DNA from: Candidatus Latescibacterota bacterium
GTDB lineage: Bacteria > Latescibacterota > UBA2968 > GCA-2709665
Direction of reading: 5' to 3'
Assembly: GCA_963662665.2 (NCBI GenBank)
Contig: CAXXJS010000010.1
Span: 64,001-128,000 of the forward strand
DNA length: 64,000 nt
Within the stretch, counting starts at the first letter, position 1. Each line of letters starts with the position of its first letter. Below the pieces are notes generated by a model. It saw only the letters and a program-made list of their open reading frames with translations, made no database searches and had not been told where the DNA came from. Position numbers and translations under genes: made by a program. Below are positions 8,005 through 58,783 of the stretch, one piece after another.

Positions 8005-8064
8005 ATTCCCTCCTGAAGGTGGCTCACAACGTCGCACTAACTTAACAACGCCATAATTGGCAGT

Positions 8065-8093
8065 TTGACAAAGGAAAAAATGGCCGGTATCAT
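8065..8093 (+). promoter_or_regulatory. Putative sigma-70 promoter of the catabolic cluster
   Basis: TTGACA-17 bp-TATCAT. Confidence 0.55.
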
Positions 8094-8272
8094 GTATACG
8101 AACGATCCGTATAAAAGTTCTCCGTCAATCCCGCCGGACCGGCGTTTCAACTGGCGAAAACGCCAGAAATGAATTGTGTTTACGCGACCTGCGATTAATG
8201 ACGCACAATCCGGGGCGGAGACGCACACCGGCTGCAACGTCCCAACACAAAGCGCTATTCCCGGAGATTTCC

Positions 8273-9343
8273 ATGTCCAACCCGTACGGCGAGCGGCCTG
8301 ACGTCATCCGCCGCTGGATCAACGATCGCCAGCGCCTGCTTCGAAATGAATCCGAGGAATTCCTTCGGAATGAAGTCCTCAACTACGGGCCGAGGCAGGC
8401 CGCGCAATGGAGCCGGGACTACAGTTCGGTTGAAGCCTTCGAACGTTCAGTCGCGGACAATCGCCGCCGCTGGAACGAAACGATCGGCGTCTTTGAGCCG
8501 GACGGCACCCGGCTGGAACCGGTACTGGAACCATGGTACGAAGACGACAGGTTTACCGCGTGGTGGCTTACCATCGGGTTGTTGGGCAATCTGAGGGGTC
8601 GCGGAATACTCGCGCTTCCCAAGGGCAGGGACGATCCCGCCCCGCTCGTCATTGCCCAGCACGGGATCGGATCATCGCCCGAAAAGGCGTTCGGCCTGGA
8701 CGACTCGGGCGATCTGTACAAATCCTACGGCCGTCGCCTGGCGGAAGCGGGTTTTGCCGTTATCGCTCCCATGAATATTTCGGGCGGCCCTCCCCGAGCC
8801 AGGCAGGAACGCCTCTGCAAACTCCTGGGCAAAACCCTCTGGGGCCTCGAAATCTTCCGTACCCAACGCCTTCTGGACTACCTGGAGACCCGCCCTGAAA
8901 TCGACGTCGCACGCACGGCCATGTATGGCATCAGCCTCGGCGGCGCCTACACCATGTTCACAACACCGGTGGAACCCCGGATCAAGGCCGCCGTGGTTTG
9001 CGCCTGGTTCAACCACAGGCGCAATAAAATGGCCGTGGACGACCCCCGGTACAGCTGTTTCCTATCCGTCAACGAAGAGCACGTATGGATTCCCGGCTGG
9101 CTGAACGCGTTCACCGACGGCGACCTGGTTTCACTCATCTGTCCCCGTCCGCTGCTGGTAGAGCAGGGCAAAGCCGACGGCATCGCGTGGTGGCCGATGA
9201 TGCTGGAGGAGTATCGCATGGCCTGCGAACACTACGCCAGGCTCGGTTTGTCCGATCGTATCGAAATCGACCTTCACGAAGGCGGCCACGAGATACGGCT
9301 CGATAAGAGCCTTCGATTTCTCGAGAAATGGTTGACGCCGTAA
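8273..9343 (+). CDS. Alpha/beta hydrolase (dienelactone hydrolase/acetylxylan esterase-like)
   Basis: HG motif, nucleophile GISLGG, LICPRPLLVEQG and C-terminal GGHE. Confidence 0.75.
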   Translation: MSNPYGERPDVIRRWINDRQRLLRNESEEFLRNEVLNYGPRQAAQWSRDYSSVEAFERSVADNRRRWNETIGVFEPDGTRLEPVLEPWYEDDRFTAWWLTIGLLGNLRGRGILALPKGRDDPAPLVIAQHGIGSSPEKAFGLDDSGDLYKSYGRRLAEAGFAVIAPMNISGGPPRARQERLCKLLGKTLWGLEIFRTQRLLDYLETRPEIDVARTAMYGISLGGAYTMFTTPVEPRIKAAVVCAWFNHRRNKMAVDDPRYSCFLSVNEEHVWIPGWLNAFTDGDLVSLICPRPLLVEQGKADGIAWWPMMLEEYRMACEHYARLGLSDRIEIDLHEGGHEIRLDKSLRFLEKWLTP

Positions 9344-22675: not shown

Positions 22676-23083
22676 TTACATTATCCGGGACCGTATCCGA
22701 TCCTCAGCCCATCTGACGACAGATTCGGCGATTTCCATCGCCTCCAGGTAGTGCTGTTCTGAGATGGGCTGCTCCATACCCGGATAGCGTGCAGCTGTCG
22801 CATAGGGCGTAAGCCTCCCTGCCCGGTGGATTTCGTCGGGCACATGTTGGCCCGTTGATGCCAGTACGGTCAATAGTTGGTCGAGATCATGCACGTACGG
22901 AAATGCAATTTCGCACGCGATCAATACGGCCTTGATGGCTTTCTCCGCCGCCTGTTGAGCATCGAAACACAGATCTTCAAGATAGGCGCCGGGAATTCGG
23001 TTTCTTGCTCGAACCAGATTGCTTCTTGCACGGTTCAACCATTCCCGAGGGTCGTCCGGTGGGAAGCGTTCAGGCGGCTTCAT
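22676..23083 (-). CDS. HEPN domain protein (MNT-HEPN toxin-antitoxin module)
   Basis: WLNRARSNL, CFDAQQAAEKAIKA, HDL and ARYP motifs; overlaps the MNT gene. Confidence 0.88.
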   Translation of the reverse strand: MKPPERFPPDDPREWLNRARSNLVRARNRIPGAYLEDLCFDAQQAAEKAIKAVLIACEIAFPYVHDLDQLLTVLASTGQHVPDEIHRAGRLTPYATAARYPGMEQPISEQHYLEAMEIAESVVRWAEDRIRSRIM

Positions 23084-31785: not shown

Positions 31786-33477
31786 TCATCCCCCGTACCT
31801 GGAGATGAGGTCCACAGCGGCCTCATCTCCTTTTTTCTGCGCCCAGGCGAGTGGCGTGGCCCACGCGGCGCCGGCCAGCGTGGGATCGGCGCCGCGTTCA
31901 AGATAGAGACGGGCCAGATCGTACTTGCCCCATCTGACCGCCCAGCCAAGCGGTGTGGACTGAAGGAGTTCGTCGATCACGTTAAGGTCGGCGCCGTGGT
32001 CGAGGAGGATGGTGGCAAAGGCAGTCCGTTCGGGCTCGGTCATAATCGGCTCTCCCCAGACAACGCCGCAGGCCGCCAGGTGATGCGCGAGCCGGTACCC
32101 GAAACGCCCCACGAGATTGGGGCTGACGCCGTGGTCCAGGATCATGCGGAAGATTTCGGGATACACCGTGCGGTCGAAATCGCGGAATTTGCGGTTGGGG
32201 TTGGTCCGCCAAAGGCGCAACGGCTGCTCCAGCAGGCTGAACCAGCGGCCGTCATCGGGTTCCCAATCGAGTTGCCGGAGGCACATCCCCACAATATTCG
32301 GGTCGCCGCCGCACCCGGCCGCCCAGAGCATCTTCTCCGCGAGCGAAGGGTCGTTGTGGAGGGCAACGGCAGCGGCCGACGTCTCGGCTTCGAGTCCGGC
32401 AGTGGTGTGATCCAGGATCCCGCCGTATCGAAACAGCAGTCCCTTCATCCGGTCGTCGCGGTTGTTGTACGCCGCGCCCACGGGATTGGCGCTGGCATAG
32501 ATGCTGGCATTCGGATCCGCGCCGTTTTCGAGCAGGAGTTCGGCGATTTCATACCGGGAATTGCCCGCCGCATTGGACAGGGGCCCACCCCACGAATACG
32601 GCCTGGATTCGTAGTGGTGCAACTGATGCCGGTCGTCCGGGTGCAGACCCAGGTCGAGCAGCAGGCGTACCATGTCGATATCGTCGTTCTGGACGGCGAT
32701 CTGCAGAAGCCCGTCCCGCTCGCTGTCGTTGGACTGAAAGCGTTCGGGATGTTCCTTCGCGAACGCGCGAACGAAGTCGAAATCGCCAAGTGCGACCGCG
32801 GACTCGATCGACTGCTCGCATCCCGCCTGCAGAAGGATGCCCGTGCAGATCAGACACCCTTCGTTGAGCGGCCTGTTGCGACCGCGCACATTAAGGACCG
32901 CGCCGTCCAGGGGCGATTGGCCCTCGGGCGTGAGATGGGTGATATCGGCGCCCCGATCGAGCAGTTCGCGGACCAGCCGGTAACGGCCGTGCGACGCGGC
33001 CGCGTGAATCACGCTGCCGCCATTTCGATGACACGCATCCAGCAGTTCGGGCTGACGGTCCAGGATGTTGAGCGCGGCCTGCTCCCGCCCCTCCCGGACG
33101 GCCTCGAACAGCGCATCGTTCTCGTCGGTGATGGTGATATTCTTGCACGCGGCCAGCTTGCGCTTTTCGTCCTCCGCCCTGATCACGTGGACGATGTCGT
33201 CCAGGCCGCGTTCTCTCGCCATCGTAAACGCGCCGGTGGCGTCGCGGTGGGGATAGATGCCCGAGTTGTGGTCTGCACCGGCTTCCATGAGAACGCGAAC
33301 CGCATCGGCGTGCCGGTTCATCACCGCGTAGTGAATCGCGCGGTGTTCGTTGTTTTCAGCCATGTGTACGTTCACCAGATCGGGCTGCTCGTCAAGTATC
33401 TGCCTGATCCGCGAGACGTCGCCGCTGCCTGCCGCCTTACATAGATCCGCGACCCTGTAAGTTCCGTTGCCGGCCAT
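31786..33477 (-). CDS. Ankyrin repeat protein
   Basis: Repeated ankyrin motifs (AIHYA, LLDRGAD, LLENGADPN, TPLGWA, TPLAWA). Confidence 0.9.
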   Translation of the reverse strand: MAGNGTYRVADLCKAAGSGDVSRIRQILDEQPDLVNVHMAENNEHRAIHYAVMNRHADAVRVLMEAGADHNSGIYPHRDATGAFTMARERGLDDIVHVIRAEDEKRKLAACKNITITDENDALFEAVREGREQAALNILDRQPELLDACHRNGGSVIHAAASHGRYRLVRELLDRGADITHLTPEGQSPLDGAVLNVRGRNRPLNEGCLICTGILLQAGCEQSIESAVALGDFDFVRAFAKEHPERFQSNDSERDGLLQIAVQNDDIDMVRLLLDLGLHPDDRHQLHHYESRPYSWGGPLSNAAGNSRYEIAELLLENGADPNASIYASANPVGAAYNNRDDRMKGLLFRYGGILDHTTAGLEAETSAAAVALHNDPSLAEKMLWAAGCGGDPNIVGMCLRQLDWEPDDGRWFSLLEQPLRLWRTNPNRKFRDFDRTVYPEIFRMILDHGVSPNLVGRFGYRLAHHLAACGVVWGEPIMTEPERTAFATILLDHGADLNVIDELLQSTPLGWAVRWGKYDLARLYLERGADPTLAGAAWATPLAWAQKKGDEAAVDLISRYGG

Positions 33478-34226: not shown

Positions 34227-36632
34227 TTATTCGTGGCGCAGAGCCTCGATGGGATTGGCGCTGGAGGCTCTATAGCACTGGAATCCGACAACCAGTAACG
34301 TGGCGAGAACAGATCCCAGTGCAGTGAAAGCAAAGGGAAAAAGGCCCATGTTTGCGCGATAGGCGAAATCCTGCAGCCATTCCTGCATGAGGACATAGGC
34401 AAACGGCCAGGCGATGAGATTGGCGATAAGCACCAGTTTTGTGAATTCGGCGCCCAACAGGACCGCGATTTCGCCGATGGATGCTCCGAAGACTTTGCGA
34501 ATGCCGATCTCTTTCCGGCGGCGTTCGCTCGTGTAGGCGGCAAGGCCAAGCAGGCCAATTGATGCGATGAGAAACGAGACTCCGAATCCAACCGCAAATA
34601 TGCGTTGGAAGCGCAGATATTTTCCGTAATTCACCTCCAGCCGGTCATCGAGAAACGCATACATGATTGGACGAACCGGGATAAAGGTCTTCCAGATTTC
34701 TTCGAGGCCCTGCATGGTTTCGCCGGCGTTTCCGGCGGCGAGCCGCAAGTTGACCACACGAAATGAACGTGGGCGCAAAACGAAGGCATTGGCGCGAAGT
34801 CTCTCGGTCAGCCGGCGCATGTGAAAGTCCTCTACAACGCCGATGATCCAGCCTTCATTATCGAGAAGCTTGAACGGTTTACCAACGGGATTCTCAAGTC
34901 CGAGTTTCTCCACCGCTGTTTCGTTGAGAATATATGCACTTTCAAAATCACTCCTGATGTCAGCGGAAAAATTGCGCCCCGCAACGAGATCAACCCCGAT
35001 CATGGGAAATAGATCCTCGTCAATGGCGTATTGCCGGATCTCGAAAGCAGCGCCCGATGGATCCAGGACCATTTTCCTTCTGCTTGTCCAGCCTTCGCCC
35101 GGAAGGCTGGCGGATGCGGTGGCAGCGAGCACGTCGGGGTGTTTGAGAAAGCGCTGTTTCACTTCGTTGTAAGTATTTCTCAGCGACCCGTCCACGTCAA
35201 AGATGCGGAGCGCGAGGATGTTCTCTTTCTTGAAACCAAGGTCTTTCTGCAGGACGTAGTCCAGTTGTACAAAGGCGACAAGGGCGACAAAAACAAGAAA
35301 GATGGAGATCGTAAACTGCAAAATCACGAGAACCCTGCGGGGGAATGATCCGCCGGATCCCGAGGCGGTTTGACTGTGCAACGCGGCAATGGGGGAAAAC
35401 CGGCTGAGGAGAAAGGCTGGATACATGCCGGAGAACAGACCGACCAGAACCGTTGCAGCCAGGAGTACAATCGCCATGTCCGGCTCTAGAAATATAGAGA
35501 GTGTACCCGTTTGTCCCACGATTTGTTGCCAGTAAGGCCGGGTTATGCCCGTGAGGATGAGGCACAAGGGCAGTGCGAGAAGGGTGAGCAAAACAGACTC
35601 GAGGAGGAATTGGAATGCCAATTGCCGTTGTCCCGCGCCAACGACCTTTCGCATACCCACTTCCTTGGCCCTCAGGGCCGCCCGCGCGGTAGAGAGATTG
35701 ACAAAGTTGATACAGGCGACGAACAAGACGAGCATGCCGATGGCTGCGAGGGCGCGAACCGCTTTGAGATCGCCGGCGCCAATGCCGGTACCCGGACCGC
35801 CGATGCCTTCGGGAAAATCTTCACGGCCATAGAGACGCGTACGCAAGAGTGATTGCAGGCGATGGCTGGTTGTGTTTTCCGGGTTTTCTTCGGGTATGAC
35901 CAGCGCACGCAATTTCTGCTCGGCTCGTTCCGGGTCCGCATCCTTGCGCAGACGGACAAAGGTTTGCACCCACCGAAATGAGGTGCGGAGTTCCCAGTCG
36001 GACCAGGCGCCCCGGACGCTTGCCGGCAGGGTTGCGGTTACAAAGTGGGGATTAAAATGCGTGTTTCGAGGCTGCTCGTCTAAAATTCCAGTAACAATGT
36101 AATCGCCCCACTGACCTTTGAGCACTTTGCCCATGGGGTCTACCCCGTTCGGGAAGAATTCGGCAACGGCTTCTTGCGAAATGACCACGCCGCCGGGGTG
36201 TGTGAGAGCCTTGTGGAGATCGCCGCGCGCTAAATTGATCCCCCAGAATACGAGATAGTTGGGATCGGCGTACCAGAAGGAACGGCGTTGCGCAAACTGG
36301 CGATATTGCACCCACCGATGGCCGGGACGGATGCGGTTGGCAGATTCAATTTCGGCAATGGATTCGATCATTCTCGGGGTGAGCGCACCGTGAGAATCGA
36401 TCTGATAATCCATTTTGTAGGGGGTGGTCAATTGCCGCAATACCCGATAGGTGCGATCGGCCCCGGGGCGGAACGTGTCGAAGCTGGTTTCGTGGGCAAC
36501 GTAGAGCCACGTGAGGAGCATGCACGTGAGACCGACGCTCAGGCCGAGGAGATTGGCCAGAATATACCATCGCTGGCGGATAATTTGCCGGACGGCGACT
36601 TTGAGAAAGTTGTATAGGATGGTTGAACTCAA
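34227..36632 (-). CDS. ABC transporter permease (MacB/FtsX-like, duplicated domain)
   Basis: ACINFVNLSTARAALRAKEVGMRKVVGA, RRKEIGIRKVFGAS and ANPIEALRHE. Confidence 0.9.
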   Translation of the reverse strand: MSSTILYNFLKVAVRQIIRQRWYILANLLGLSVGLTCMLLTWLYVAHETSFDTFRPGADRTYRVLRQLTTPYKMDYQIDSHGALTPRMIESIAEIESANRIRPGHRWVQYRQFAQRRSFWYADPNYLVFWGINLARGDLHKALTHPGGVVISQEAVAEFFPNGVDPMGKVLKGQWGDYIVTGILDEQPRNTHFNPHFVTATLPASVRGAWSDWELRTSFRWVQTFVRLRKDADPERAEQKLRALVIPEENPENTTSHRLQSLLRTRLYGREDFPEGIGGPGTGIGAGDLKAVRALAAIGMLVLFVACINFVNLSTARAALRAKEVGMRKVVGAGQRQLAFQFLLESVLLTLLALPLCLILTGITRPYWQQIVGQTGTLSIFLEPDMAIVLLAATVLVGLFSGMYPAFLLSRFSPIAALHSQTASGSGGSFPRRVLVILQFTISIFLVFVALVAFVQLDYVLQKDLGFKKENILALRIFDVDGSLRNTYNEVKQRFLKHPDVLAATASASLPGEGWTSRRKMVLDPSGAAFEIRQYAIDEDLFPMIGVDLVAGRNFSADIRSDFESAYILNETAVEKLGLENPVGKPFKLLDNEGWIIGVVEDFHMRRLTERLRANAFVLRPRSFRVVNLRLAAGNAGETMQGLEEIWKTFIPVRPIMYAFLDDRLEVNYGKYLRFQRIFAVGFGVSFLIASIGLLGLAAYTSERRRKEIGIRKVFGASIGEIAVLLGAEFTKLVLIANLIAWPFAYVLMQEWLQDFAYRANMGLFPFAFTALGSVLATLLVVGFQCYRASSANPIEALRHE

Positions 36633-40403: not shown

Positions 40404-40447
40404 TGATCCAATCAGGAATACGAGGGAACGAAAGAACGGGATTACCC

Positions 40448-40519
40448 CTTTCCGTCTTCTCGTCTTCTCGCCTTTCCGTCTTCTCGTCTTCTCGCCTCTT
40501 CGTCTTCTCGTCTTCTCGT
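40448..40519. repeat. Octamer tandem repeat (9 x 8 bp, organised as 3 x 24 bp)
   Basis: CTTTCCGT CTTCTCGT CTTCTCGC twice, then CTCTTCGT CTTCTCGT CTTCTCGT, between the NTase stop and the uvrA start. Confidence 0.85.
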
Positions 40520-41458
40520 CTACAGGAGTTCGACGCTGTCACCATCATAATAGTAGGCGGGTTCTTCAACTTCAATCCTGCTCTTCTCGGTCAGGTGGAC
40601 CGGACTCGACAGTTTCTGGATGATTTCCTGCCGGACAAGCCATTCACAGGCTGCCTCGAGGCCGCCGCCCTGGATCTTCTTTTGAAAATAGTCGCTGATT
40701 TCCGAAAATTTGCGCACTTCGGACGATTCCGCGAGGTAGTCCAGAAGAGGACGAAACAGGTCGCAGGTCTTTTTCTCAAGATAGTCGTTGACCAGATCGA
40801 GTACGCGTTTGACGGAGTCGCGAGTCTTGACCTGACTGACGAAATCCGTGTAGATAGCATTGAATAACTGCGGATTGTATTTGAGCGCCTGATGGACCAC
40901 CTCCCGGCCGGGCGCTTCGTTGTGCATGAGCACCTGGATCGATGCCAGTTCTCTGACGACCTGCATGAGCCACCAGAAGCTGTATTCGAAGTCTTTTTTC
41001 AGGTAAAAGTACTTCTCGGCTTTATTGAGCGACGGTATCAGGAAGGAAGCGTATCTCATCAGTTGAAATGCGCGGTCTCGCGTTCCAATGCGATCGAAGG
41101 CATGGTACCACTTCGCCACGGACTCGTCTCTTGTAAAGAGAAGGGTGCTATTCGAAAACGTAAAATCCAGCCATCCGCCGGCGAGGTCGCCCTCGATGCG
41201 GCGTTTGAAAACGCTGCGGGAAACCCGTTGCGCCTGGATATTGACGTCGTCTTCACAGAGTGTGACGTGTCCTTCTTTCACGCCATCCTGCATGATGATC
41301 CACAGGTCGATGTCCGAGTTCACCCAGACTTCGTCGTAGGACAGACTGCCGAACAGAATGGCAGCGAGTACCCACCGGTCATTCTCGAGCTTCGCGACCA
41401 GAGACGACAGCGCACTCCGGTAACGATTCTCGACAGATTCGCGTTCGGCGACGGGCAT
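40520..41458 (-). CDS. Pol-beta superfamily nucleotidyltransferase with C-terminal helical domain
   Basis: ILFGSLSYD...SDIDL motif; GGAG RBS before MPVAERES. Confidence 0.75.
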
Positions 41459-41583
41459 GGATTCTCCACGTTTCGTATTAGTGAGGGGCAGAAGTCCATG
41501 TATAATCAGGTTCGAATCAGGTGTCAAGGTCAATTCCCTGAATTCGCCGTTCTCCCGTCGGATGCTTTCCGGCTTCCGTTCTC

Positions 41584-41612
41584 TTGACGAAACCGAACGT
41601 TTCCGGTATATT
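41584..41612 (+). promoter_or_regulatory. Putative sigma-70 promoter of the uORF-lipoprotein-TBDR unit
   Basis: TTGACG-17 bp-TATATT, about 50 bp upstream of ATG 41661. Confidence 0.55.
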
Positions 41613-41660
41613 TATAGGTGTAACCAGCTTTGGACTTGTACTCTCCCGGAGACGGTAGGG

Positions 41661-41939
41661 ATGTTTTCTTCCTCCAGACAGATTCATCCTCTTTTTTTGT
41701 TCGCTCTGGCGATATTCGCGGCCTACCTCGCGATATTTTTGCTCACCGCGTACCCCGAACACGACCACGACCAACAACAATGTACTGTCTGCGCCTGGTT
41801 GAATAGCTTGAGCGTCGTTTTGCCGGCAGTACTGGCGGTTCAATTCTGCTTTCTGCACTTCCGTCAATTGTTCTCCTCGCGCCGCGTACTTCGCACTTCC
41901 TTCCTTCTTCCCGACGGACGCGCACCTCCCGTGTCCTGA
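41661..41939 (+). CDS. DUF2946/CruR-like leader peptide (TM helix, His cluster, CxxC, C-terminal RAPP arrest motif)
   Basis: 92 aa: hydrophobic segment, EHDHDQQQCTVC, second hydrophobic stretch, and ...DGRAPPVS*. Lies upstream of a TonB receptor locus. Confidence 0.8.
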   Translation: MFSSSRQIHPLFLFALAIFAAYLAIFLLTAYPEHDHDQQQCTVCAWLNSLSVVLPAVLAVQFCFLHFRQLFSSRRVLRTSFLLPDGRAPPVS

Positions 41940-42246
41940 TCCATCCTCCCGTGTCGTCAAGACACGCCTTTCGACGTTTCAAAATATATTCCAACTTAAG
42001 TAACTCCGGCTCGGGCCTTTGCCCGAATCTGCACATGCGGGAACCCGGGATTATCCTGCGTTCGGGTGGACGTTAGTCCGCCGACCGGCATTGTGCCATC
42101 CCCGCCTCTCTCCGGAGGTCGTCCGCCGCCTGAGGCATCGGCCTGTCGCCAGTATGTCGACAGATACGAATCATGCCAACCAGGGAGGGCGGACGTCCAC
42201 GCGAGGTTCGCGACAGAATGAAATACTGGCATATAGGAGAACATTG

Positions 42247-43497
42247 ATGTTCAGCACGCTGAAAATGCAACAATCCCCTCTGTTAATCGCAGCGGCGGCG
42301 GTAGCGGTAATCCTGGCCGGTTGCGGAAAAGACGACCCCATTACGCCACAGGAAGAACATTACGAAGCCGAAGGCCTCGTCCTCCTCGACTCCGGCCAGC
42401 GGTTCTTCCGATATTTCCAGGGCAGGATAGACTCGGGCGACGGCCGGGCGGAAGCCCTGGAAGTCACTCACGGCGAAGTCACCGGCAAGTGGAGCATCCG
42501 CTTCCTGGACAGGGACGGAAACGAAATGGCCCCGCCCACCGGCGAGGGCTTCACGTTCACGTGGGAAATTGCGGACAAGTCAATTGTGGAAGTCGTCCAG
42601 GACGCGGCGGAAGCGGGCCAATTCGTCTTCGCCCTGCGCGGCCTCGAAGATGGCGAAACCACCATCAGGCTTCAGATTTCGCACGAAGGGCACGTGGACT
42701 TTACCACGCTGCCAATCCCGGTGCACGTGGTAGGAGAGTTTGAGGCCGAAGGGATTGTTATCATCGAGTCCGGCGTTCGATTCTTCCGTTATTTCCAGGG
42801 CGAGATCGACTCAAACGAAGGTCGGGTATCGGAACTCTCGGCCCCAATCGGCCTGACGCCCCACTGGCGCATCGCGTTTCTGGATGAACACGGCGAAGAA
42901 ATAGATCCCCCGGACGATCCCGAATTCTCGTTCGCCTGGATCATTGCCGACTCCGACATCCTCGAAGTCCACCAGGACGAGGGCGACGAGGGTTCGTTCG
43001 ACTTCCACCTGCGCGGCTTGCAGGAGGGCGAAACCACCATTGTATTTGGAGTCAGACACGAAGGTCACATCGACTACCGCACCCTACCCATTCCCGTACA
43101 CGTGGAGTCACAGGAGGGCCAGCACGGCGAACCCGTGGGCGTGCGGCTTAAGGAAGAAGACAGCGGCGAAGTGCTGGTGGAGGCGCCCGTGGCGGGCGAA
43201 GGCACAGCCAGCGATGCGCTGTCGGTAGCCGTTGGCGATACAACCGACCACATCGCCACGTTCTTCTTTGATGAACACGACGTGGAATTCCAGCCGGAAG
43301 CACCCGACGAGACGCTGGGTATTGCGGTGGGCGACACCTCGTTGCTCGCCATCGATCCGCCTGTCGCGCCCGAATACTGGGCCTTCAGACTCATCGGCAA
43401 AAAGGCCGGCACGACCACCATAACCCTTTCCACTCTCCACGACGGTGAGGCGGAAGACACGTTCGCGCCAATTTCGGTGGAGATCACCGCACCGTAG
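42247..43497 (+). CDS. Lipoprotein with three tandem ~126-aa beta-rich repeats carrying HEGH motifs (putative metal binding)
   Basis: AGGAGA RBS; lipobox LAGC; repeats EAEG...FFRYFQG...GETTI...HEGH.D...PIPVHV, 378 nt apart; very acidic. Confidence 0.75.
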   Translation: MFSTLKMQQSPLLIAAAAVAVILAGCGKDDPITPQEEHYEAEGLVLLDSGQRFFRYFQGRIDSGDGRAEALEVTHGEVTGKWSIRFLDRDGNEMAPPTGEGFTFTWEIADKSIVEVVQDAAEAGQFVFALRGLEDGETTIRLQISHEGHVDFTTLPIPVHVVGEFEAEGIVIIESGVRFFRYFQGEIDSNEGRVSELSAPIGLTPHWRIAFLDEHGEEIDPPDDPEFSFAWIIADSDILEVHQDEGDEGSFDFHLRGLQEGETTIVFGVRHEGHIDYRTLPIPVHVESQEGQHGEPVGVRLKEEDSGEVLVEAPVAGEGTASDALSVAVGDTTDHIATFFFDEHDVEFQPEAPDETLGIAVGDTSLLAIDPPVAPEYWAFRLIGKKAGTTTITLSTLHDGEAEDTFAPISVEITAP

Positions 43498-43562
43498 CAG
43501 GAAGCGCGGCGGGAGGGTGGTTCTTGCCCTCCCGCCGGCTGCAACGCGGGAGTACAATCCAG

Positions 43563-45839
43563 ATGGCTGATTTACACAGGATAAATCGTCTGCACCCGGG
43601 TGGCGGCTCCAGCTACCGTTCCACCATCCGGCTGCACTTTATCCGGGCGGCGCTCGCGTTGCTGTCCGTGGCGTGTCTTGCGGGTATCAGCTCGGCAACT
43701 CAGGCCGTGTTGATCGAAGGGTACGTCTTCGACAGCGAAACCGGACTGCCCGTCGGGAACGTGAACGTCCGGCCCGCAGATCATGCCGCAGTCGCGTCTA
43801 CGGACGAAAAAGGCCGGTTCGTGCTTCACCTGTCTCCTAGTGACTATCGGCTGTTACTTACGCACGTCGGCTATGAGGAAACGCGCCACGAACTGAACAT
43901 CTCGGGTGCGAAGCATCCCGTTGTCTATCTGGAACTGGCGCGACTGGATCTCAAGCTGGACCCCCTGGACGTTGTGGCCAAACGCGCTGAAACCCGGTTT
44001 GAAGAACTGCATGAAGCCACCCGTGTGCTTTCGGGCGACGAACTCAGGAAGAAATACAGCATCACATTGGCCGAGACCATGAAGAACGAACTCGGCGTTG
44101 CCATCCAGAGCATGGGTCCGGCGCCGGCCCGACCCGTTATCCGTGGGCTCAGCGGCGACCGTGTACAGATCAACGTCGACGGCATTCAGTCACAGGACCT
44201 CTCCGCAACATCGGCCGATCATGCGGTAACCGTCGAGACCTTCAACGCGGAACGCCTGGAAATCATCCGCGGGCCCCGCACGCTCCTGCACACGTCCACG
44301 GCCGGCGGCGGCGTCATCAACGTCGTCAAGCACAAGATCCCCGAAACCCGGCCGGAGCGCTTGTTCGGAAGCGTGGGCGCCTACGGGGAAACGGCGAACC
44401 GTGGTTATTTCTCATCCGCCGCCCTTACAGCGCCCGTGGGGCCGCTCGCGTTGCATGCCGAGTCAACCTACCGGGATACCAGGGACATCCAGACCCCGGT
44501 CGGCCGGCTTGCCAATACGCCCATCAACACCCACACATATACCTTGGGCATGTCCTACGCGGGCGACCGGGGATACGTTGGCGCTTCTTTCGATCAGTTC
44601 AACACTCAGTACGGCATTCCGGGCGGATTCATCGGCGCGCACCCAAACGGCGCGGACCTCGATATCATCCGTCGGGTTTTCGACGGGAAGGCAGTATACA
44701 GGCCCGACAGCCAGATCATCGACAGAGTGGAGGCGGGATTCACAAAAGCCTATTACTATCATCTCGAGTTCGAATCCAGCGGCAGAATCGGATCCGAGTT
44801 CCTTTTTCATGACTACAGCGGCGACCTCAAACTCTACCTGAACACGGGAAACAAGGAGCAAAACACCGTTCTCACAACCGGCTTTGAACACCGCAATCTC
44901 AAGCTGGGCGCTTATGTCTTCACCCCGCCCACTAGAAAGCAGAACGTCAACCTCGGGTTGTATCATGAAACAGCCTATCGCAATATCGAACTGCAGGCCG
45001 CGGCCCGGTACACCTATGCGACCTTCGACCCGCGCCTCCAGGCGAACTCCAACAAGATCCTGGACGTAGATCGCACCTTCCATACATGGTCCGCGGCATT
45101 CAGCCCGCTCGTGCCCATCACGGACCAGCTTACAGCGGGCTTCAGCCTCAGCCGCTCCCAGCGCGCGCCTACCATCGAGGAACTCTATAACGAGGGCCCG
45201 CACCTTGCCGCTTACACCTTTGAGAAGGGCAACGTCGAACTCAATACCGAACGCAGTTTCGGCGCGGAGGCATTCATTCACTACCTGCAGCCGGGGTTCG
45301 ACCTGGTCTTCACGGGATTCTGGAACGAATTCGACGACTACATCGCGCCACGAAATACCGGAGAAATCAACTTTGCTCAACTACTTCCCATCTACGCCGC
45401 GGAGGGTATAGACGCGAGAATGATGGGCGTGGAAACCCACCTGAAATGGCGTCCGAACGCGCGACTGGAACTGGAGATGAATCTGAGTCACGTGCGCGGC
45501 GAAAACCGGGACGACCGAATGCCCCTGCCCGAAATGCCGCCGCTCAAGTTCGTCGGGAGCGCAACCTACAGGCACTCCTGGCTTACCGGGGGAGGAACCA
45601 TGGAGTGGGCCACGGGACAGAAACGCGTGGATACCTACGAAGACCCCACCGCCGGTTATTCCGTCTTCGGCGTTTACATTCAACGCGATATCCTTGCAAA
45701 TCGGGCCCGCCACAGCATTATTCTTTCCCTGGAGAATCTATTCGACACGGAATACCGCAACCACCTGTCGCGCATCCGATCGGTAATGCCCGAAACGGGA
45801 AGGAGTCTGAAGTTGAATTACAAGATGTATTTCTTTTAG
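43563..45839 (+). CDS. TonB-dependent receptor (ZnuD-like) with N-terminal carboxypeptidase-regulatory-like domain
   Basis: Plug motifs RPVIRGLSGDRV, DHAV and EIIRGP..L; RAPTIEELY..GPH; ENLFD..Y.NHLS; C-terminal Phe. Confidence 0.88.
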   Translation: MADLHRINRLHPGGGSSYRSTIRLHFIRAALALLSVACLAGISSATQAVLIEGYVFDSETGLPVGNVNVRPADHAAVASTDEKGRFVLHLSPSDYRLLLTHVGYEETRHELNISGAKHPVVYLELARLDLKLDPLDVVAKRAETRFEELHEATRVLSGDELRKKYSITLAETMKNELGVAIQSMGPAPARPVIRGLSGDRVQINVDGIQSQDLSATSADHAVTVETFNAERLEIIRGPRTLLHTSTAGGGVINVVKHKIPETRPERLFGSVGAYGETANRGYFSSAALTAPVGPLALHAESTYRDTRDIQTPVGRLANTPINTHTYTLGMSYAGDRGYVGASFDQFNTQYGIPGGFIGAHPNGADLDIIRRVFDGKAVYRPDSQIIDRVEAGFTKAYYYHLEFESSGRIGSEFLFHDYSGDLKLYLNTGNKEQNTVLTTGFEHRNLKLGAYVFTPPTRKQNVNLGLYHETAYRNIELQAAARYTYATFDPRLQANSNKILDVDRTFHTWSAAFSPLVPITDQLTAGFSLSRSQRAPTIEELYNEGPHLAAYTFEKGNVELNTERSFGAEAFIHYLQPGFDLVFTGFWNEFDDYIAPRNTGEINFAQLLPIYAAEGIDARMMGVETHLKWRPNARLELEMNLSHVRGENRDDRMPLPEMPPLKFVGSATYRHSWLTGGGTMEWATGQKRVDTYEDPTAGYSVFGVYIQRDILANRARHSIILSLENLFDTEYRNHLSRIRSVMPETGRSLKLNYKMYFF

Positions 45840-45881
45840 TTTCCACCCGGAGTCGACGTCGAGGCGCCACCACTCCCTACC

Positions 45882-46628
45882 TCAATTCTCCCCCAACATC
45901 GCCCGCCGCATCACGCGTTCCACAATGCGTGGAAACCAGGTACCCAGAATAGCCGCCGTACGGTTTCCGAAACCTGGGACTACCAGACGTTTTCTCTTCC
46001 GGATGCCCCGAAGGATGGCCTCCGCCAGGTCTTCCGGCGCCATGCGTTTTTCCTCGCACGAGTTGTCAGGGCTGTACCGGCGGGCGTGGCCGGTTCGCGT
46101 GGGACCCGGAAAGACCGTCATGACGTGTATTCCGCGCGGGGCGAGCGCGACCGAAAGACTTCGCGCGTACGACGCCAGCCCGCTCTTTGTGGCCGCGTAC
46201 GTCGCGGCCCCCGGATAACTTACGTAGTGGGATAGTGAGGATACGAAAACGAGGGATCCGCCAGGGACAATGCGGCTGGCCTTCAGCAACTTCGCCGTTA
46301 ACGCCATGGGCGCGTAGAGATTAACGGCAATCACGCACTCCTGCAATGCCAGGCTCACTTCCGGAAAACGTCCGACGGCGTTGATGCCCGCGTTGTGAAT
46401 CAGCACGTCGATCCCATCCATATGTACCAATTGTTCGTGAACCCGCGCGATGCCCGCATCGGTACCCAGGTCTGCAACGACAAACCGCGCATTCAGTTCC
46501 CGCTCGAGATTGGCCGCACCCCCGGCATCCACGTCCACGCCGGTCACGGAATACCCTGAACGAACAAACCTTCGGGCGAGCGCCTCGCCAATACCATTGG
46601 CCGCGCCGGTAATGACCGCGTGTTTCAT
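45882..46628 (-). CDS. SDR family oxidoreductase
   Basis: ITGAANGIG, HNAG, YAATK and PGPTRT; ATGA-coupled to the upstream SDR. Confidence 0.88.
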   Translation of the reverse strand: MKHAVITGAANGIGEALARRFVRSGYSVTGVDVDAGGAANLERELNARFVVADLGTDAGIARVHEQLVHMDGIDVLIHNAGINAVGRFPEVSLALQECVIAVNLYAPMALTAKLLKASRIVPGGSLVFVSSLSHYVSYPGAATYAATKSGLASYARSLSVALAPRGIHVMTVFPGPTRTGHARRYSPDNSCEEKRMAPEDLAEAILRGIRKRKRLVVPGFGNRTAAILGTWFPRIVERVMRRAMLGEN

Positions 46629-47368
46629 CGCGCCCGCCATCGCATCAGGGCTTCGATTACCCGATCGCAATAACGCCCGCAGAAGCGCAAGCCCTTGTTT
46701 CCCGGACCGATTGTCATGACAGATCGTCGCCCGTGGATCGCTCGCGCGATCCTCCCGGCGACCCGGGCCGCCGGGGGGAATGCTCTCGACTCCTCGTTGG
46801 TCCATCCCGCCTTTCGATGAATGCCCGTTTGCGTCGCTCCCGGGTGTATGACCTGGACGTTCACGTCGCCCTCAACGCGCAGATTACGCCCGAGAACATC
46901 CAGCGCCTCCTTGGTCGCCGCGTACACGGCGAAATCCGGACACGGAAACGCGTGAGCGATGGACCCAATTAGCACGTGTTTACCGTTCCTATTGTTCACG
47001 TACGGTATCAGCGCGTGCGTCAGGCGCAGCGGCGCCAGGAGATTGACGGCGACGATCTCTCGAATGTTTGCAACGTCCTGATCGGCCACGGGACCATAAT
47101 GTCCCGTGGCCGCGTTCTGAATCGACAGGTCCAATGAATCTATCTTCCTCGATTTCAGAAAAGAACAGACTTTGCCGGCGCAATCCTCCTCCGACAGGTC
47201 CACCTCACAATAGTCTTCTTCGCTGTAGAGCTCGCATTCGAGCGAATCCATGGCGCGCCTGCCCACGAGCACCAGCCGATCTTCACGCGCACGATAGATT
47301 TCGGCGAGCGCCCGGCCAATTCCATCCGTTGCACCCGTGATCAATACGGTCTTTCTCTCCCGAGCCAT
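46625..47368 (-). CDS. SDR family oxidoreductase
   Basis: ITGATDGIG, QNAA, YAATK and HPGATQT. Confidence 0.88.
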   Translation of the reverse strand: MARERKTVLITGATDGIGRALAEIYRAREDRLVLVGRRAMDSLECELYSEEDYCEVDLSEEDCAGKVCSFLKSRKIDSLDLSIQNAATGHYGPVADQDVANIREIVAVNLLAPLRLTHALIPYVNNRNGKHVLIGSIAHAFPCPDFAVYAATKEALDVLGRNLRVEGDVNVQVIHPGATQTGIHRKAGWTNEESRAFPPAARVAGRIARAIHGRRSVMTIGPGNKGLRFCGRYCDRVIEALMRWRAR

Positions 47369-57085: not shown

Positions 57086-58783
57086 TCTGAATAATTCACA
57101 AAAAAGGTAGTTTCCTTACCCAAGTCATTGTATTATATTATGGTTACGCGAATAACCTGATAACAATGAACCGGGAGGAAACTACCGTGGCAGGTCAAGA
57201 TAAACAACAAAGGATGTCTTTCGCAAGTGTTTCTGGCAAACGGGTAGAAGCCGCCTTCGACGGGGGCATGCTGACCAGCGACACCGGGGCGATGCTGCTT
57301 CGAGAGGTGGAATCCAAAATCGGCATTTTGTGTCGGATCGTCGAGGCGATAACAGATCGTCGGCATCCAAGTTACGTGGATCACCCGTCGGTGGACCTGC
57401 TCCGTCAGCGTGTCTTTCAGATGGCGTGTGGGTATGAAGATGCGAACGACTGCAATACGTTGCGTAGCGACCCCGGCTTCAAGGCGGCCTGCGATCGGTT
57501 GCCGGTCACCGGTGCCAACCTGGCCAGTCAACCCACGATGAGTCGGTTCGAGAACCGGATCACCAGAGGTGATTTATATCGGATCGCGACGGCCTTTGCC
57601 GATGCGTTTATCGCCTCGTATAAGCACCCCCCCGAAGCCATCCTGTTGGATATCGATGACACGGAAGACAAGGTGTATGGATCCCAGCAGTTGTCGTTAT
57701 TCAATGCGTATTTCAAGGGCTATTGCTACCAACCCCTGCATATCTATGAAGGGCAAACCGGCAAGTTGATCACGACGGTCTTGCGTCCGGGCCGCCGACC
57801 CACGGGCAAAGAGATCGTGTCGATTCTCAAACGGGTGATCGCCTACCTGCGTCACGCATGGCCCGATGTCAAGATCCTGTTGCGTGGCGATTCACACTTT
57901 TCGTGTCCGGAAGTACACACGATGTGTGACGAAAACGATGTGTTTTTTATCCTCGGACAAAGCGGAAACGCGGTGCTGCTGCGGTTGGCACAGCCCTTGA
58001 TGGACCAGGCCAAAGCGCTGTATGCCGATGGGGGAAAACCTGTGCGCCTGTATCGCTGTTGGGACTATCAGGCCGGCAGCTGGTCTTCCCCACGCCGCAT
58101 CATCTGCAAGGCAGAAGTCAACCCGCAAGGTCACAATGTCCGATTCGTGGTCACCAACCTGAACGGCGCACAACCGTCATTCATCTACAAAACCGCTTAT
58201 TGCTCACGCGGCAGGATGGAAAACTTCATCAAGAATCACAAGACCTTTCTGCATTCCGATCGCACCTCTTGCCACACCTTCCATGCCAATCACTTCCGGC
58301 TCTTTCTCCACAGCGCCGCCTATGTGTTGGTACACGCCCTGGCCCATATCGGGTTGCGCGGCACCACGTGGACGAACGCCCAGTTTAATACGCTGCAAAA
58401 CCGCATCTTGAAAGTCGCCGGGCGCGTTTGTGAACTGAAAACCAAAATCACGTTCCATCTGCCAACGGCGTTTCCACTCAAACACCTCTATCGAACCATG
58501 CTCTACAATCTGGGAACCGCCATGCCATAACGTTTCCATCTGGACCAGGCCGCCTTCACGTCTTGATTGCTACCATCAAAAGCCATGGAGAAGTCTGTGC
58601 TCTTGGCAGTCACAGCAGGGTCATCCTGACGCCTCCACCCGACCCTGCTACAAAAACACACCCTGAAATCGCTTGAAAACGCCAGTTCCGCACAGCCAGC
58701 TTTCTCCTGCGTTCTTAGACTCACTCGAAAGCTGCTTCTGCTGCACGAATCTGCAATCCCTGACGATTCATGAATAGGTCAGG
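57086..58783 (+). mobile_element. IS1380 family insertion sequence, 1698 bp, TTAA target duplication
   Basis: Imperfect IRs TCTGAATAATTCAC / ATGAATAGGTCAGG; TTAA at 57082-57085 and 58784-58787. Confidence 0.9.
57166..58530 (+). CDS. IS1380 family DDE transposase
   Basis: FDGGMLTSDTG, GYEDANDC..LR.DP, LASQPTMSRFEN, LDIDDT, LRGDSHF and Y..RG.MENFIK. Confidence 0.95.
   Translation: MNREETTVAGQDKQQRMSFASVSGKRVEAAFDGGMLTSDTGAMLLREVESKIGILCRIVEAITDRRHPSYVDHPSVDLLRQRVFQMACGYEDANDCNTLRSDPGFKAACDRLPVTGANLASQPTMSRFENRITRGDLYRIATAFADAFIASYKHPPEAILLDIDDTEDKVYGSQQLSLFNAYFKGYCYQPLHIYEGQTGKLITTVLRPGRRPTGKEIVSILKRVIAYLRHAWPDVKILLRGDSHFSCPEVHTMCDENDVFFILGQSGNAVLLRLAQPLMDQAKALYADGGKPVRLYRCWDYQAGSWSSPRRIICKAEVNPQGHNVRFVVTNLNGAQPSFIYKTAYCSRGRMENFIKNHKTFLHSDRTSCHTFHANHFRLFLHSAAYVLVHALAHIGLRGTTWTNAQFNTLQNRILKVAGRVCELKTKITFHLPTAFPLKHLYRTMLYNLGTAMP

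Follow-up and report, generated by a model that had tools for sequence, protein, structure and literature searches.

Part of the window, the 64,000-nucleotide stretch of DNA analysed here, is best explained as a three-gene operon, in which a short upstream open reading frame (uORF) is followed by a lipoprotein gene and the gene of a TonB-dependent receptor. Judged from its sequence, the first gene would be best explained as a leader with a regulatory role, of the CruR/CutF (DUF2946-like) type, and the leader mechanism as a whole, a metal-responsive arrest-peptide uORF controlling an uptake operon, is probable. The original prediction, which read the locus as a metal-sensing uptake system, finds support in silico, and the features it listed are all present at their positions: a promoter-like site, a 92-aa ORF with a TM helix, EHDHD, CTVC, a second hydrophobic stretch and a RAPPVS ending, a 307-nt spacer, a lipoprotein with HEGH repeats, and a TonB receptor. 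The locus contains:

41584..41612, forward strand: candidate sigma-70-like promoter (TTGACG 41584-41589, 17 nt, TATATT 41607-41612)
41589-41603, forward strand: dyad GAAAC-N5-GTTTC, between the -35 and -10 hexamers
41648..41651, forward strand: Shine-Dalgarno sequence (SD) of the uORF, GGAG, 9 nt 5' of the ATG
41661..41939, forward strand: uORF, 92 aa, CruR/DUF2946-like arrest-peptide candidate (ATG 41661, TGA stop 41937-41939)
uORF residues ~10-30 and ~46-66: hydrophobic segments, predicted TM1 and TM2
41760-41771, forward strand: HDHD, uORF residues 34-37, within EHDHD (residues 33-37)
41781-41792, forward strand: CTVC, uORF residues 41-44
41919-41930, forward strand: RAPP, uORF residues 87-90, followed by the peptide end VS and the stop
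41940..42246, forward strand: spacer, 307 nt
42247..43497, forward strand: lipoprotein gene, 416 aa, lipobox LAGC
43563..45839, forward strand: TonB-dependent receptor gene, 758 aa, with CarboxypepD_reg, Plug and barrel domains

RAPP and CxxC, which had been expected to be conserved in homologues of the uORF, are so: ten close homologues (61-92% identity) all retain HDHD, CxxC and RAPP, and across 43 aligned family members C41, R87, P89 and P90 are invariant, while H34, H36, C44, W46 and P84 are nearly invariant. With a looser pattern, 47 uORFs were found in the window and 40 related loci, every one of these loci from MAGs labelled Latescibacterota or Gemmatimonadota; 23 uORFs carry RAPP and 24 RSPP, and all 47 lie on the strand of the lipoprotein. 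After four regex artefacts had been read through, the gap from CxxC to the arginine was 42 or 43 residues in 46/47 uORFs (44 in the single CxxH variant) and the tail after R[AS]PP 2-3 residues in 45/47 (4 in L024, 7 in L019). For a chance test, the 690,052 bases of the 40 loci and the window were cut in six frames into 5,901 stop-to-stop segments of at least 60 aa. Only 47 of these finish with R[AS]PP and no more than four further residues; one is an unrelated chance match and 46 are family uORFs, in all of which C..[CH] stands 40-46 residues N-terminal to the arginine. Hence, the uORF exceeds chance expectation. Purifying selection acts on the peptide along its whole length, with a median dN/dS of 0.31 (maximum 0.72, 78 pairs) and 49/46/73 of 98 alignment columns variable at codon positions 1/2/3; because the sequences are closely related, counts and p-values on them describe non-independent events.

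The order of uORF, lipoprotein and receptor, for which a synteny check had been proposed, is conserved: the uORF lies 88-570 nt 5' of 42/46 lipoprotein genes (40 related loci and the window), and a receptor gene follows in 36/40 related loci. The uORF is always the first gene, with a spacer of at least 88 nt after it. In L012 the uORF is deleted and the receptor broken; the uORF-less locus is a decaying locus.

The expected family link to DUF2946 held in part. DUF2946 is the top Pfam match of the uORF, but at 16.5 bits it stays below the cut-off of 23.7; the match spans profile positions 55-117 of 117. The profile matches 8/15 relatives of the uORF at E<=1 and only 2/43 family members at E<=0.01. 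One sequence, P0063, both passes the Pfam cut-off (25.5 bits) and is matched by the uORF-family profile (E 2.6e-5, 1.84 billion proteins); the same profile search found no classical DUF2946 proteins. In addition, the window's CxxC-to-R gap of 42 residues does not fall within the 45 +/- 1-2 given in the literature for DUF2946. The uORF is accordingly placed, from motif architecture and the one bridging sequence P0063 only, in what appears to be a small, divergent CruR/DUF2946-like family.

The receptor, which may alternatively start at a TTG at 43524, was predicted to be ZnuD-like rather than of the copper type, and this agrees with the comparisons. Its best NCBIfam match is ZnuD (202 bits; TonB-copper 67 bits) and its best PDB match ZnuD (4rdr, E 4.5e-36), followed by OprC as the second-best solved relative (E 6e-12). 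Zinc-related neighbours are present in the related loci, not among the 41 annotated ORFs of the window itself: a ZigA cluster in 5 loci (representative at equivalog level, 623.5 bits vs a cut-off of 600), a CDF protein carrying ZT_dimer in 4 and a DUF3299-like cluster in 10. Other genes adjoining the cassettes encode an ABC ATPase, an FtsX/MacB permease and a His-rich lipoprotein. DUF3299 is reported as ZrgE of the Vibrio Zur-regulated zinc system ZrgABCDE (PMC9817125). ZnuD as the closest solved relative, together with the ZigA, Zrg-like and CDF neighbours, points to zinc over copper, and zinc is our tentative assignment for the metal sensed or transported.

That the same leader mechanism would instead sense and transport copper, as with CruR/BfrG and CutF/CutO, is unlikely. 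Both characterised DUF2946-family regulators, CruR and CutF, are copper-specific, CxxC is a recognised, classic Cu(I)-binding motif, and the OprC and TonB-copper matches fit with copper, but ZnuD scores far above either of them. No CopC, YcnI, PCuAC, Sco, PepSY_TM or multicopper oxidase was found among 25 neighbour-cluster representatives and the 41 window ORFs; the cassettes are adjoined instead by ZigA, CDF with ZT_dimer and the DUF3299/Zrg-like ABC set. DUF2946 genes also appear on a Caulobacter zinc-related list, one of them adjoining czrCBA (PMC4176598).

The lipoprotein contains HEGH twice, as predicted, within SHEGHVDF and RHEGHIDY. These belong to two repeats of ~125 aa, at residues ~36-162 and ~163-289, that both contain an HxGH-x-D motif; residues 290-416 make up a third domain, a beta-sandwich. 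The AF2 model is all-beta (pLDDT 84.9), and matches were confined to generic Ig-like tandem proteins. Most likely, the lipoprotein works with the receptor by capturing the metal or a metallophore.

In the proposed leader mechanism, the nascent 92-aa peptide would stall its own ribosome once RAPP is reached, the P site holding Pro89 and the A site Pro90. The H-x-H...CxxC site, 45 residues away from the peptidyl-transferase centre, would by then have reached the tunnel exit or lie just beyond it. If metal is scarce the arrest would persist, and the parked ribosome would mask a C-rich tract, keeping Rho off, as well as the uORF codons complementary to the lipoprotein initiation region, so that lipoprotein and receptor would be produced. 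Plentiful metal would be bound by the emerging His/Cys site and relieve the arrest, and expression would drop. Two possible couplings to downstream expression are visible, a rut-like tract and the complementarity of the uORF end to the next SD; these and neighbouring elements are:

41870..41949, forward strand: C-rich, G-poor tract (C 46%, G 17.5%) spanning the 3' end of the uORF and its stop codon
41925..41955, forward strand: two exact copies of CCTCCCGTGTC
41950..41966, forward strand: hairpin CGTGTC-GTCAA-GACACG, directly 3' of the uORF stop
42231..42259, forward strand: lipoprotein initiation region (SD GGAG 42236-42239, ATG 42247)

The C-G skew of the tract is reached by 0.05% of 12,784 80-nt windows (window, both strands), and across 42 cassettes the mean skew at -80..0 is +0.19 to +0.21 vs -0.007 in the background; the C-richness arises partly because the peptide codons are Ser, Pro, Leu and Arg. 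We regard the tract as a candidate Rho-utilisation site. The first copy of CCTCCCGTGTC (41925-41935) forms the Pro-Pro-Val-Ser codons of the candidate arrest site and the second (41945-41955) begins 6 nt past the uORF stop; both are retained in the clade consensus, copy 2 with one mismatch. The hairpin is seen in the MFE and centroid structures and predicted by RNAalifold, with 93% of cells paired in 12 sequences and two pairs changed on both sides. The 307-nt spacer gave no Rfam match and no promoter-like or terminator-like site on the forward strand.

The uORF end (41926-41949) and the lipoprotein initiation region have complementary sequences. In the RSPP clade, uORF end and SD form a 15-bp helix that is 91.3% paired, vs 37-51% in slid controls, and a change of the stop from TGA to TAA is matched by CA to TA in the SD arm. 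In the RAPP clade, the CUCC of the Pro-Pro codons pairs with GGAG in 10-12/12 sequences (RNAalifold), a helix derived from one of the same sequences used for testing. The duplex in the window amounts to -21.6 kcal/mol, equalled by 0.24% of 1,689 control windows, and in the footprint register to just -11.7 kcal/mol (z -0.87). An arrested-ribosome footprint lowers the median opening cost of the initiation region from 10.4 to 7.3 kcal/mol (mock footprint 9.7). This unmasking was not reproduced in the window (8.5 free vs 8.0 kcal/mol arrested), and over all 42 cassettes the unpaired probability of SD and AUG is flat under the footprint (0.29 to 0.30). The RSPP clade shows strong pairing that includes covariation; in the window itself the pairing is ambiguous.

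The 92-aa product might also be a working two-helix inner-membrane protein, such as a metal-binding partner or chaperone in the uptake route, with a non-regulatory RAPP. Two hydrophobic segments, an acidic His/Cys loop and a basic tail make a normal hairpin topology, and the selection on the whole peptide would suit such a protein. It is nevertheless very improbable, as RAPP and RSPP are reported among the most avoided tetrapeptides of bacterial proteomes (PMC12992588), the R, P and P are fixed together with their distances to the stop and CxxC, the uORF's final codons complement the SD of the following gene, the uORF invariably takes first place ahead of a spacer, and its loss goes with a decaying locus.

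The promoter-like site, as predicted, has 10/12 matches and is the sole forward-strand match within 41300-46100; in the leader alignment both hexamers are retained in 10/12 RAPP-clade leaders, and the block GGAGACGGTAGGGATG at the uORF SD is conserved. Essentially transcriptional control by a Zur/Fur-type repressor at the dyad, with little contribution from the uORF, would fit the dyad's place between the hexamers, the conserved promoter block and the Zur control of zinc uptake genes in other systems (PMC9817125), but it is highly improbable, since the dyad is only partly retained and imperfect in most relatives, no repressor gene lies nearby among the window ORFs, and the conserved arrest motif, fixed spacing and uORF-SD complementarity would be left unexplained. 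Transcriptional and uORF control may well coexist.

Among known systems, ZnuD, the zinc-piracy receptor of Neisseria, is Zur-regulated. The receptor here stays at 202 bits where the equivalog cut-off is 950; unlike ZnuD, it has a CarboxypepD_reg domain added at the N-terminus and a partner gene of its own, that of the lipoprotein. Vibrio ZrgABCDE combines an ABC ATPase with a permease and a DUF3299 protein (PMC9817125), and a like trio adjoins cassettes in related loci, headed in L034 and L035 by its own uORF of the CruR/DUF2946-like family; however, it is absent from the window, and ZrgA (DUF2796) and ZrgD were not identified. ApdA/ApdP and SecM (RAGP) share the C-terminal R-A-P-P and a small exported or membrane protein before the controlled gene (PMC10951233, PMC12992588). 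They monitor Sec/YidC activity, whereas in the uORF a His/Cys site is conserved and keeps a fixed distance, which suggests metal as the signal.

CutF, the DUF2946 leader of cutFOG in Rhodobacter capsulatus, is proposed to melt, on stalling, a stem shielding the next gene's ribosome-binding site (bioRxiv 10.1101/2025.02.05.636593), and the uORF end is likewise complementary to the next SD. Unlike the uORF, CutF has CXXXC and PPP motifs and depends on EF-P and secretion; it turns a detoxifying oxidase on at high copper, whereas the operon here would be on at low metal, and the helix arm here consists of the final codons of the uORF itself plus its stop codon.

CruR (Bp2923, DUF2946), leader of cruR-bfrG-bp2921 in Bordetella pertussis, had been named as the precedent, and its literature agrees: CXXC and RAPP are both required and the distance between them is important; Rho takes part, as does a C>G tract, and the intergenic regions are long (PMC9426467). 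Arrest was demonstrated in vitro, the P and A sites being occupied by the two Pro codons, and RSPP is partly arrest-competent (PMC12992588). Like CruR, the uORF heads an operon with a TonB-dependent transporter, keeps a fixed CXXC-RAPP distance and ends in a C>G tract before a long intergenic region. It differs in length (92 vs 145 aa), CXXC-RAPP gap (42-43 vs 45 residues), the H-x-H before CxxC, a second hydrophobic segment and a Pfam DUF2946 score under the cut-off. Its family occurs in Latescibacterota/Gemmatimonadota-labelled MAGs rather than Proteobacteria, half of it uses RSPP, the gene directly after the leader codes for a lipoprotein, the operon is without a PepSY_TM gene, and the gene context points to zinc. 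The architecture had been thought undescribed; since RAPP/RGPP uORFs 5' of TonB receptors are reported as widespread in Gram-negative bacteria (PMC12992588), its general form is already described, and the novelty here lies in a lipoprotein gene standing first among the regulated genes, in the RSPP variants and in the likely identity of the metal.

The elements named in the original prediction, namely a promoter, a short leader frame (uORF), a spacer, a lipoprotein gene and a receptor gene, are all found in the sequence, and they lie between two flanking genes.

Features of the operon and its flanks
40523-41533, strand opposite to the operon: nucleotidyltransferase-like gene, flanking
41584-41612, + strand: sigma-70-like site TTGACG-17-TATATT, score 10/12, the sole + strand match in 41300-46100
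41648-41651, + strand: Shine-Dalgarno (SD) sequence GGAG of the uORF, preceding the ATG at 41661
ATG 41661 to TGA 41937-41939, + strand: uORF, translated frame of 92 codons
307 nt from the uORF to the lipoprotein gene, + strand: spacer, no + strand promoter-like site inside
42247-43497, + strand: lipoprotein gene, with lipobox LAGC and two HEGH repeats
43563-45839, + strand: TonB-dependent receptor gene, with CarboxypepD_reg, Plug and barrel domains, all above Pfam cut-offs
45885-46805, strand opposite to the operon: short-chain dehydrogenase gene, flanking

As the flanking genes are on the other strand, the unit consists of the uORF, lipoprotein and receptor genes only. An Rfam scan of 41300-43700 at E<=1 detected neither a riboswitch nor a known leader, and a terminator-like site inside the uORF (41716-41733), one of 8 matches against 4.5 expected, was taken as a chance match. 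Between the -35 and -10 hexamers lies a dyad, GAAAC-CGAAC-GTTTC (41589-41603), which could be an operator for a metal-responsive repressor; in relatives it is only partly palindromic. Beyond the operon, 40447-40518 holds three copies of a 24-nt unit built from CGTCTTCT octamers (8.6 copies at 40453-40521, 95% matches), a repeat located in the gap that separates the uvrA start (40403) from the nucleotidyltransferase-like gene, which ends at 40523. A duplicated MacB_PCD/FtsX permease of 801 aa (34230-36632, - strand) is encoded 5 kb upstream of the operon, and TPR, LRR/FG-GAP and ankyrin-repeat proteins, a DDE transposase, a Fic-domain protein and a HEPN protein are also encoded in the window (5893-8037, 20066-22282, 31789-33477, 57166-58527, 18229-19761 and 22679-23083).

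The uORF peptide has hydrophobic segments at residues ~10-30 and ~46-66, and the acidic loop between them carries EHDHD (33-37) and CTVC (41-44). Its tail is basic and ends in LLPDGRAPPVS, with the candidate arrest motif RAPP at residues 87-90 of 92. Judged by hydropathy only, the position of R6 before the first hydrophobic segment and of the acidic loop after it points to an Nin-Cout orientation or an export signal.

A word-indexed search recovered 10 uORF homologues, 61-92% identical, all with HDHD, CxxC and RAPP. Related loci were then gathered with the lipoprotein rather than the uORF as bait, keeping one genome per species. This gave 40 loci (L numbers up to L040), all of them in MAGs that carry the label Candidatus Latescibacterota, Gemmatimonadota or uncultured bacterium. 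Their six-frame translations and those of the window were searched for [CH]xx[CH], 30-60 residues, R[AGS]PP, at most 10 residues and a stop. The pattern is fitted by 47 small frames, every one of them on the lipoprotein strand, and the arrest motif is RAPP in 23 and RSPP in 24; the window belongs to a RAPP clade, which is distinguished below from an RSPP clade. As background, 5,901 segments between two stops reach a length of 60 aa in the 690,052 bases. R[AS]PP followed by no more than four residues closes 47 of these, 46 of which are the uORFs and one of which is unrelated.

The conservation of RAPP and CxxC expected from the original prediction is borne out by an alignment of 43 family members, with half of the uORFs carrying RSPP: C41, R87, P89 and P90 are invariant, and H34, H36, C44, W46 and P84 are present in at least 90%. 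The gap between CxxC and the arginine is 42 residues (the RAPP clade including the window, with a small number of others) or 43 (the majority of RSPP forms) in 46 of the 47 uORFs; L024, the single CxxH variant, has a gap of 44. These gaps and tails were corrected by eye for a second CxxC in L017 (gap '23') and for a pattern running past the stop in L030, L033 and L036 (tails of 6-8). Among 13 RAPP-clade uORFs, dN/dS has a median of 0.31 and a maximum of 0.72 (78 pairs), and the variable columns at codon positions 1, 2 and 3 number 49, 46 and 73 of 98. Since dN/dS is low and third codon positions vary most, the uORF is under protein-level selection. It is evidently a real, conserved and translated gene.

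The predicted order of uORF, lipoprotein and receptor also recurs in the relatives. A uORF lies 88-570 nt upstream of 42 of the 46 lipoprotein genes (45 in the loci plus that of the window), and a receptor homologue follows downstream on the same strand in 36 of the 40 loci. The exceptions for the uORF are L014, which starts at a contig edge; L012 (7800-11400), where the uORF is deleted and the receptor split and truncated; L011 (7337-7912), where the first uORF is without RAPP (GRASRV...) and reads through; and L025, which is without a uORF and has the lipoprotein and receptor genes 3 kb apart. The copies in L012 and L011 are decaying. The receptor is missed in L007, L008 (contig end), L039 and L040. 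In the last two (7386-8483 and 6402-8390, respectively) the repeat domain of the lipoprotein ends large dockerin/EF-hand-like proteins with DxDGDG repeats, with neither uORF nor receptor.

Several genomes contain two tandem cassettes (uORF plus lipoprotein gene). L002 and L010 each have a second uORF, behind which come the same leader and the remnant of a lipoprotein start, with the receptor next, and in L017 two tandem uORFs, one ending in RAPPAS (6796-7146) and one in RSPPPVS (7431-7859), precede one lipoprotein gene. L034 (3923-6767) and L035 (4159-7063) have a further uORF (RSPPVV*) heading an operon of an ABC ATPase, an FtsX/MacB_PCD permease and a DUF3299-like protein; hence the leader family can also occur apart from the lipoprotein-receptor pair. 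In L026, L027, L030-L032, L034, L035 and L038, ~90-105 nt 5' of the uORF start, a perfect 12-bp palindrome, CGATTGCAATCG, precedes several of the RSPP-clade uORFs, and a TTGCAATAAGAT-N-TGATATTTTGCATATT block precedes others. These may be operator or terminator sites.

The receptor was assigned by its domains (PF07715, E 1.7e-14; PF00593, E 7.5e-22; CarbopepD_reg_2; all above cut-offs), which identify it as a TonB-dependent receptor. Its best named family is ZnuD (NCBIfam NF038289), with 202.1 bits against a curated equivalog cut-off of 950, followed by ~137 bits for haem-type receptor families and 67 bits for the OprC/NosA copper family (TIGR01778; curated cut-off 472); both curated scores are below their cut-offs. 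The closest solved structure is ZnuD (4rdr, E 4.5e-36), and the next is OprC (E 6e-12), matched over the C-terminal barrel only. The proposal of a ZnuD-like rather than a copper-type receptor agrees with both comparisons.

Among the annotated ORFs of the window, no metal genes occur near the operon. In the RSPP-clade loci, the cassettes are situated inside a conserved gene block.

Genes of the conserved block in RSPP-clade loci and downstream of the receptor
ZigA zinc-chaperone GTPase: cluster in 5 loci, scanned representative 623.5 bits against a cut-off of 600
ABC ATPase, then FtsX/MacB-type permease
DUF3299-like protein: cluster in 10 loci
Small membrane protein with CAIHC
Lipoprotein with AHDHGHDHGHEHHG
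uORF, lipoprotein and receptor
Chlorite-dismutase/HemQ-like protein of ~240 aa: L033:10853-11620 and 12 other loci, on the receptor's strand, downstream, Pfam E 4.8e-13
CDF transporter with ZT_dimer domain: 4 loci

The chlorite-dismutase-like gene stands directly after the receptor in most mapped loci, and NCBIfam HemQ models match it weakly. According to PMC9817125, Vibrio has a Zur-regulated zinc system, ZrgABCDE, whose ZrgE component is DUF3299 and adjoins the permease and ATPase of that system. The His-x-His and CxxC of the uORF loop form a plausible Zn(II) site, and zinc is overall our first choice of metal, if a tentative one. Copper, the metal of the known precedents, ranks second; none of the copper partners of DUF2946 operons (CopC, YcnI, PCuAC, Sco, PepSY_TM) was found among the annotated neighbours. 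Nickel or cobalt is possible.

The lipoprotein has the N terminus ...AVILAGC/GKDD, in which C26 is invariant in 15 homologues and present in at least 90% of 39, as expected for a lipobox. It is modular, a repeat of ~125 aa occurring in one, two, three or more copies, and each repeat conserves a His at its start, FxFHLRG and HxxHxD. The AlphaFold2 model shows three all-beta domains (pLDDT 84.9). The protein bears the precomputed label PF26181, and our comparison with Pfam and NCBIfam gave no family above cut-off. Foldseek of the model against the PDB gave generic tandem Ig-like matches only (TM-scores 0.17-0.31), a profile search of PDB sequences nothing below E 0.069, and a search of the ESM Atlas unnamed clusters only. 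Complex prediction for receptor residues 150-758 and lipoprotein residues 36-416 returned a score of 0.00 and no verdict, which counts neither way for binding. From the conserved residues and the gene order alone, we infer that the lipoprotein may be a metal-capturing partner of the receptor.

Arrest-dependent control of downstream expression is likely, and two couplings between the uORF and the lipoprotein gene were considered. One would be of the Rho type. The 80 nt at 41870-41949 contain 46% C and 17.5% G, and only 0.05% of 12,784 such windows from both strands of the 64 kb are as skewed. The skew recurs in all cassettes, with means of +0.19 to +0.21 over the last 80 nt of the uORF and +0.14 over the next 40 nt, against a background of -0.007 in the loci. 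According to PMC9426467, the Rho-dependent terminator of Bordetella cruR has its rut site within a C>G stretch of cruR. The C-rich tract at the 3' end of the uORF resembles this rut region, and Ser, Pro, Leu and Arg codons contribute to its C-richness here.

The other coupling would be unmasking of the SD of the next gene, as in arrest leaders of the SecM, MifM and CutF type, where mRNA pairing within reach of the stalled ribosome's footprint conceals that SD. In the RSPP clade, GTAGTCTCCTGAATA, which spans Val-Val-Ser, the stop codon and the three bases after it, is complementary to TATTCAGGAGACTAT, the SD with its flanking bases. Across 20 sequences 91.3% of the cells of this 15-bp helix are paired, against 37-51% with the partner slid by 1-3 columns. 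In L029 the stop is TAA instead of TGA, matched by TTTAGGAG replacing TTCAGGAG, one compensatory stop-codon change. For the RAPP clade, RNAalifold predicts pairing between CUCC in the Pro-Pro codons and the SD's GGAG (10-12 of 12 sequences), and also between GUGU and ACAC. The MFE fold of the window has a second register, in which GUGU, CUGA (Val-Ser-stop) and the post-stop CAUCCUCC pair with GGAG, GAUG, UCAG and GCAC of the initiation region; it is 88.6% paired against 20-42% when slid (12 sequences), and was derived from one of those same sequences. With one frame of reference (~1,000-1,700 control windows per locus), the duplex z is below -2 in 23 of 42 cassettes, and the window's duplex is -21.6 kcal/mol, with 0.24% of controls as good. 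With the other frame of reference 28 of 42 cassettes pass, and the window has -11.7 kcal/mol and z -0.87. No SD complementarity was seen for the uORFs heading the ABC operons of L034 and L035, where the best duplex has -10.3 kcal/mol.

An arrested ribosome was simulated by keeping the mRNA unpaired from -12 to +15 nt about the first Pro codon. SD and AUG became no more likely to be unpaired under this footprint (0.29 to 0.30), and the measure was replaced by the opening energy of the initiation region. The median opening energy decreases from 10.4 to 7.3 kcal/mol under the arrested footprint and to 9.7 kcal/mol under a mock footprint in mid-spacer, and opening becomes easier by 3 kcal/mol or more in 17 of 42 cassettes, compared with 2 of 42 under the mock. 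It is mainly the RSPP clade that shows the effect (drop of 3-8 kcal/mol); the window itself shows none (8.5 to 8.0 kcal/mol), and here SD unmasking is no more plausible than a Rho-type coupling.

Within the window an exact 11-nt direct repeat, CCTCCCGTGTC, covers the Pro-Pro-Val-Ser codons of the arrest site (41925-41935) and recurs at 41945-41955, starting 6 nt after the stop. It is kept in the clade consensus with one mismatch, and no tested explanation accounts for it. CGTGTC of copy 2 and GACACG at 41961-41966 make up a conserved hairpin, which is 93% paired and has both sides altered in two of its pairs. This local hairpin would tie up copy 2, copy 1 would hold the SD, and the arrested ribosome would remove copy 1. 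We infer such a switch as a possibility; the window's own energetics do not demonstrate it. An inverted repeat (I3) that links the -35 region to the post-stop hairpin was discarded, lying partly outside the predicted transcript.

The relation of the uORF to DUF2946 (PF11162) was evaluated by profile searches. As suspected in the original prediction, DUF2946 is the top Pfam match of the window's peptide, but its 16.5 bits fall short of the gathering cut-off of 23.7. The match (E 0.015) covers profile positions 55-117 of 117, that is, the C-terminal half to the last position. Among the relatives, 8 of 15 match at E<=1 and 2 of 43 at E<=0.01. An exhaustive search of 1.84 billion representative proteins with the family profile gave six matches, among them no classical DUF2946 protein. 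Four are small relatives, and two (P0061 and P0062), long repetitive proteins matched over short stretches only, were taken as spurious. One of the small relatives, P0063, scores 25.5 bits with DUF2946 and is matched by the family profile at E 2.6e-5. Because it satisfies both profiles, P0063 acts as a bridge, without the uORF family passing directly; as a query it recovers only itself and is a singleton. We therefore treat the uORF family as a putative divergent branch with DUF2946 architecture, which by the curated test is not a member.

The uORF shares with CruR-type leaders an N-terminal hydrophobic segment, a CXXC (CTVC, 41-44), RAPP near the C terminus, the position as first gene of an operon and a long intergenic distance. 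PMC9426467 describes for Bordetella CruR that copper control needs the CXXC, that downstream expression needs RAPP, that the CXXC-RAPP spacing of 45 residues, within one or two, is also required, and that a long intergenic region lies 3' of cruR. The spacing of the uORF family is as tightly fixed as that of CruR/DUF2946 and 2-3 residues shorter. In vitro, CruR arrests at RAPP while the P and A sites hold the two Pro codons, as shown in PMC12992588, which also describes RSPP as partly arrest-permissive and strongly avoided in proteomes. Across Gram-negative bacteria, the same paper finds TonB receptor genes preceded by RAPP/RGPP uORFs; hence the general arrangement of uORF and TonB receptor, part of an architecture that had been predicted to be undescribed, is already known. 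[quoted passage not shown]

A literature search found no paper joining the RAPP motif with zinc, and for CruR with zinc it gave irrelevant word-start matches only, among the matches listed. To our knowledge, the only demonstrated cases in which a nascent peptide senses a metal post-transcriptionally concern copper and come from Proteobacteria (CruR, CutF). Taken as a whole, the locus might represent the first zinc-responsive nascent-chain sensor, a joint reading that we regard as rather doubtful. It would be a short two-helix branch of CruR/CutF, so far found only in MAGs labelled Latescibacterota or Gemmatimonadota, in which a His2-Cys2 loop reads zinc on leaving the ribosome, with RAPP and RSPP as natural arrest sites. 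Its own last codons and stop would form a helix hiding the ribosome-binding site of the next gene, and it would control an undescribed outer-membrane zinc capture pair, the Ig-repeat His-rich lipoprotein and the ZnuD-like receptor, and in some genomes also a Zrg-like ABC importer.

If this is true, a divergent branch with a different likely metal and phylum would indicate that the sensing principle is general and tunable. The mRNA switch would be unusually legible, since it is the stop region of the uORF itself that pairs with the following SD. The fixed ruler of 42-43 residues from metal site to arrest site would provide a handle on a question raised in the arrest-peptide literature, namely how ligand binding at the tunnel exit becomes arrest release at the peptidyl-transferase centre. 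An uncharacterised family of Ig-repeat lipoproteins paired with TonB receptors would also gain its first functional context. Judged by motif, spacing and gene order, the locus is, as it appears, a genuine and conserved arrest-peptide leader of the CruR/CutF kind in a new lineage; new in comparison with CruR and CutF are, probably, the metal, together with the natural RSPP series and the unusually explicit mRNA pairing.
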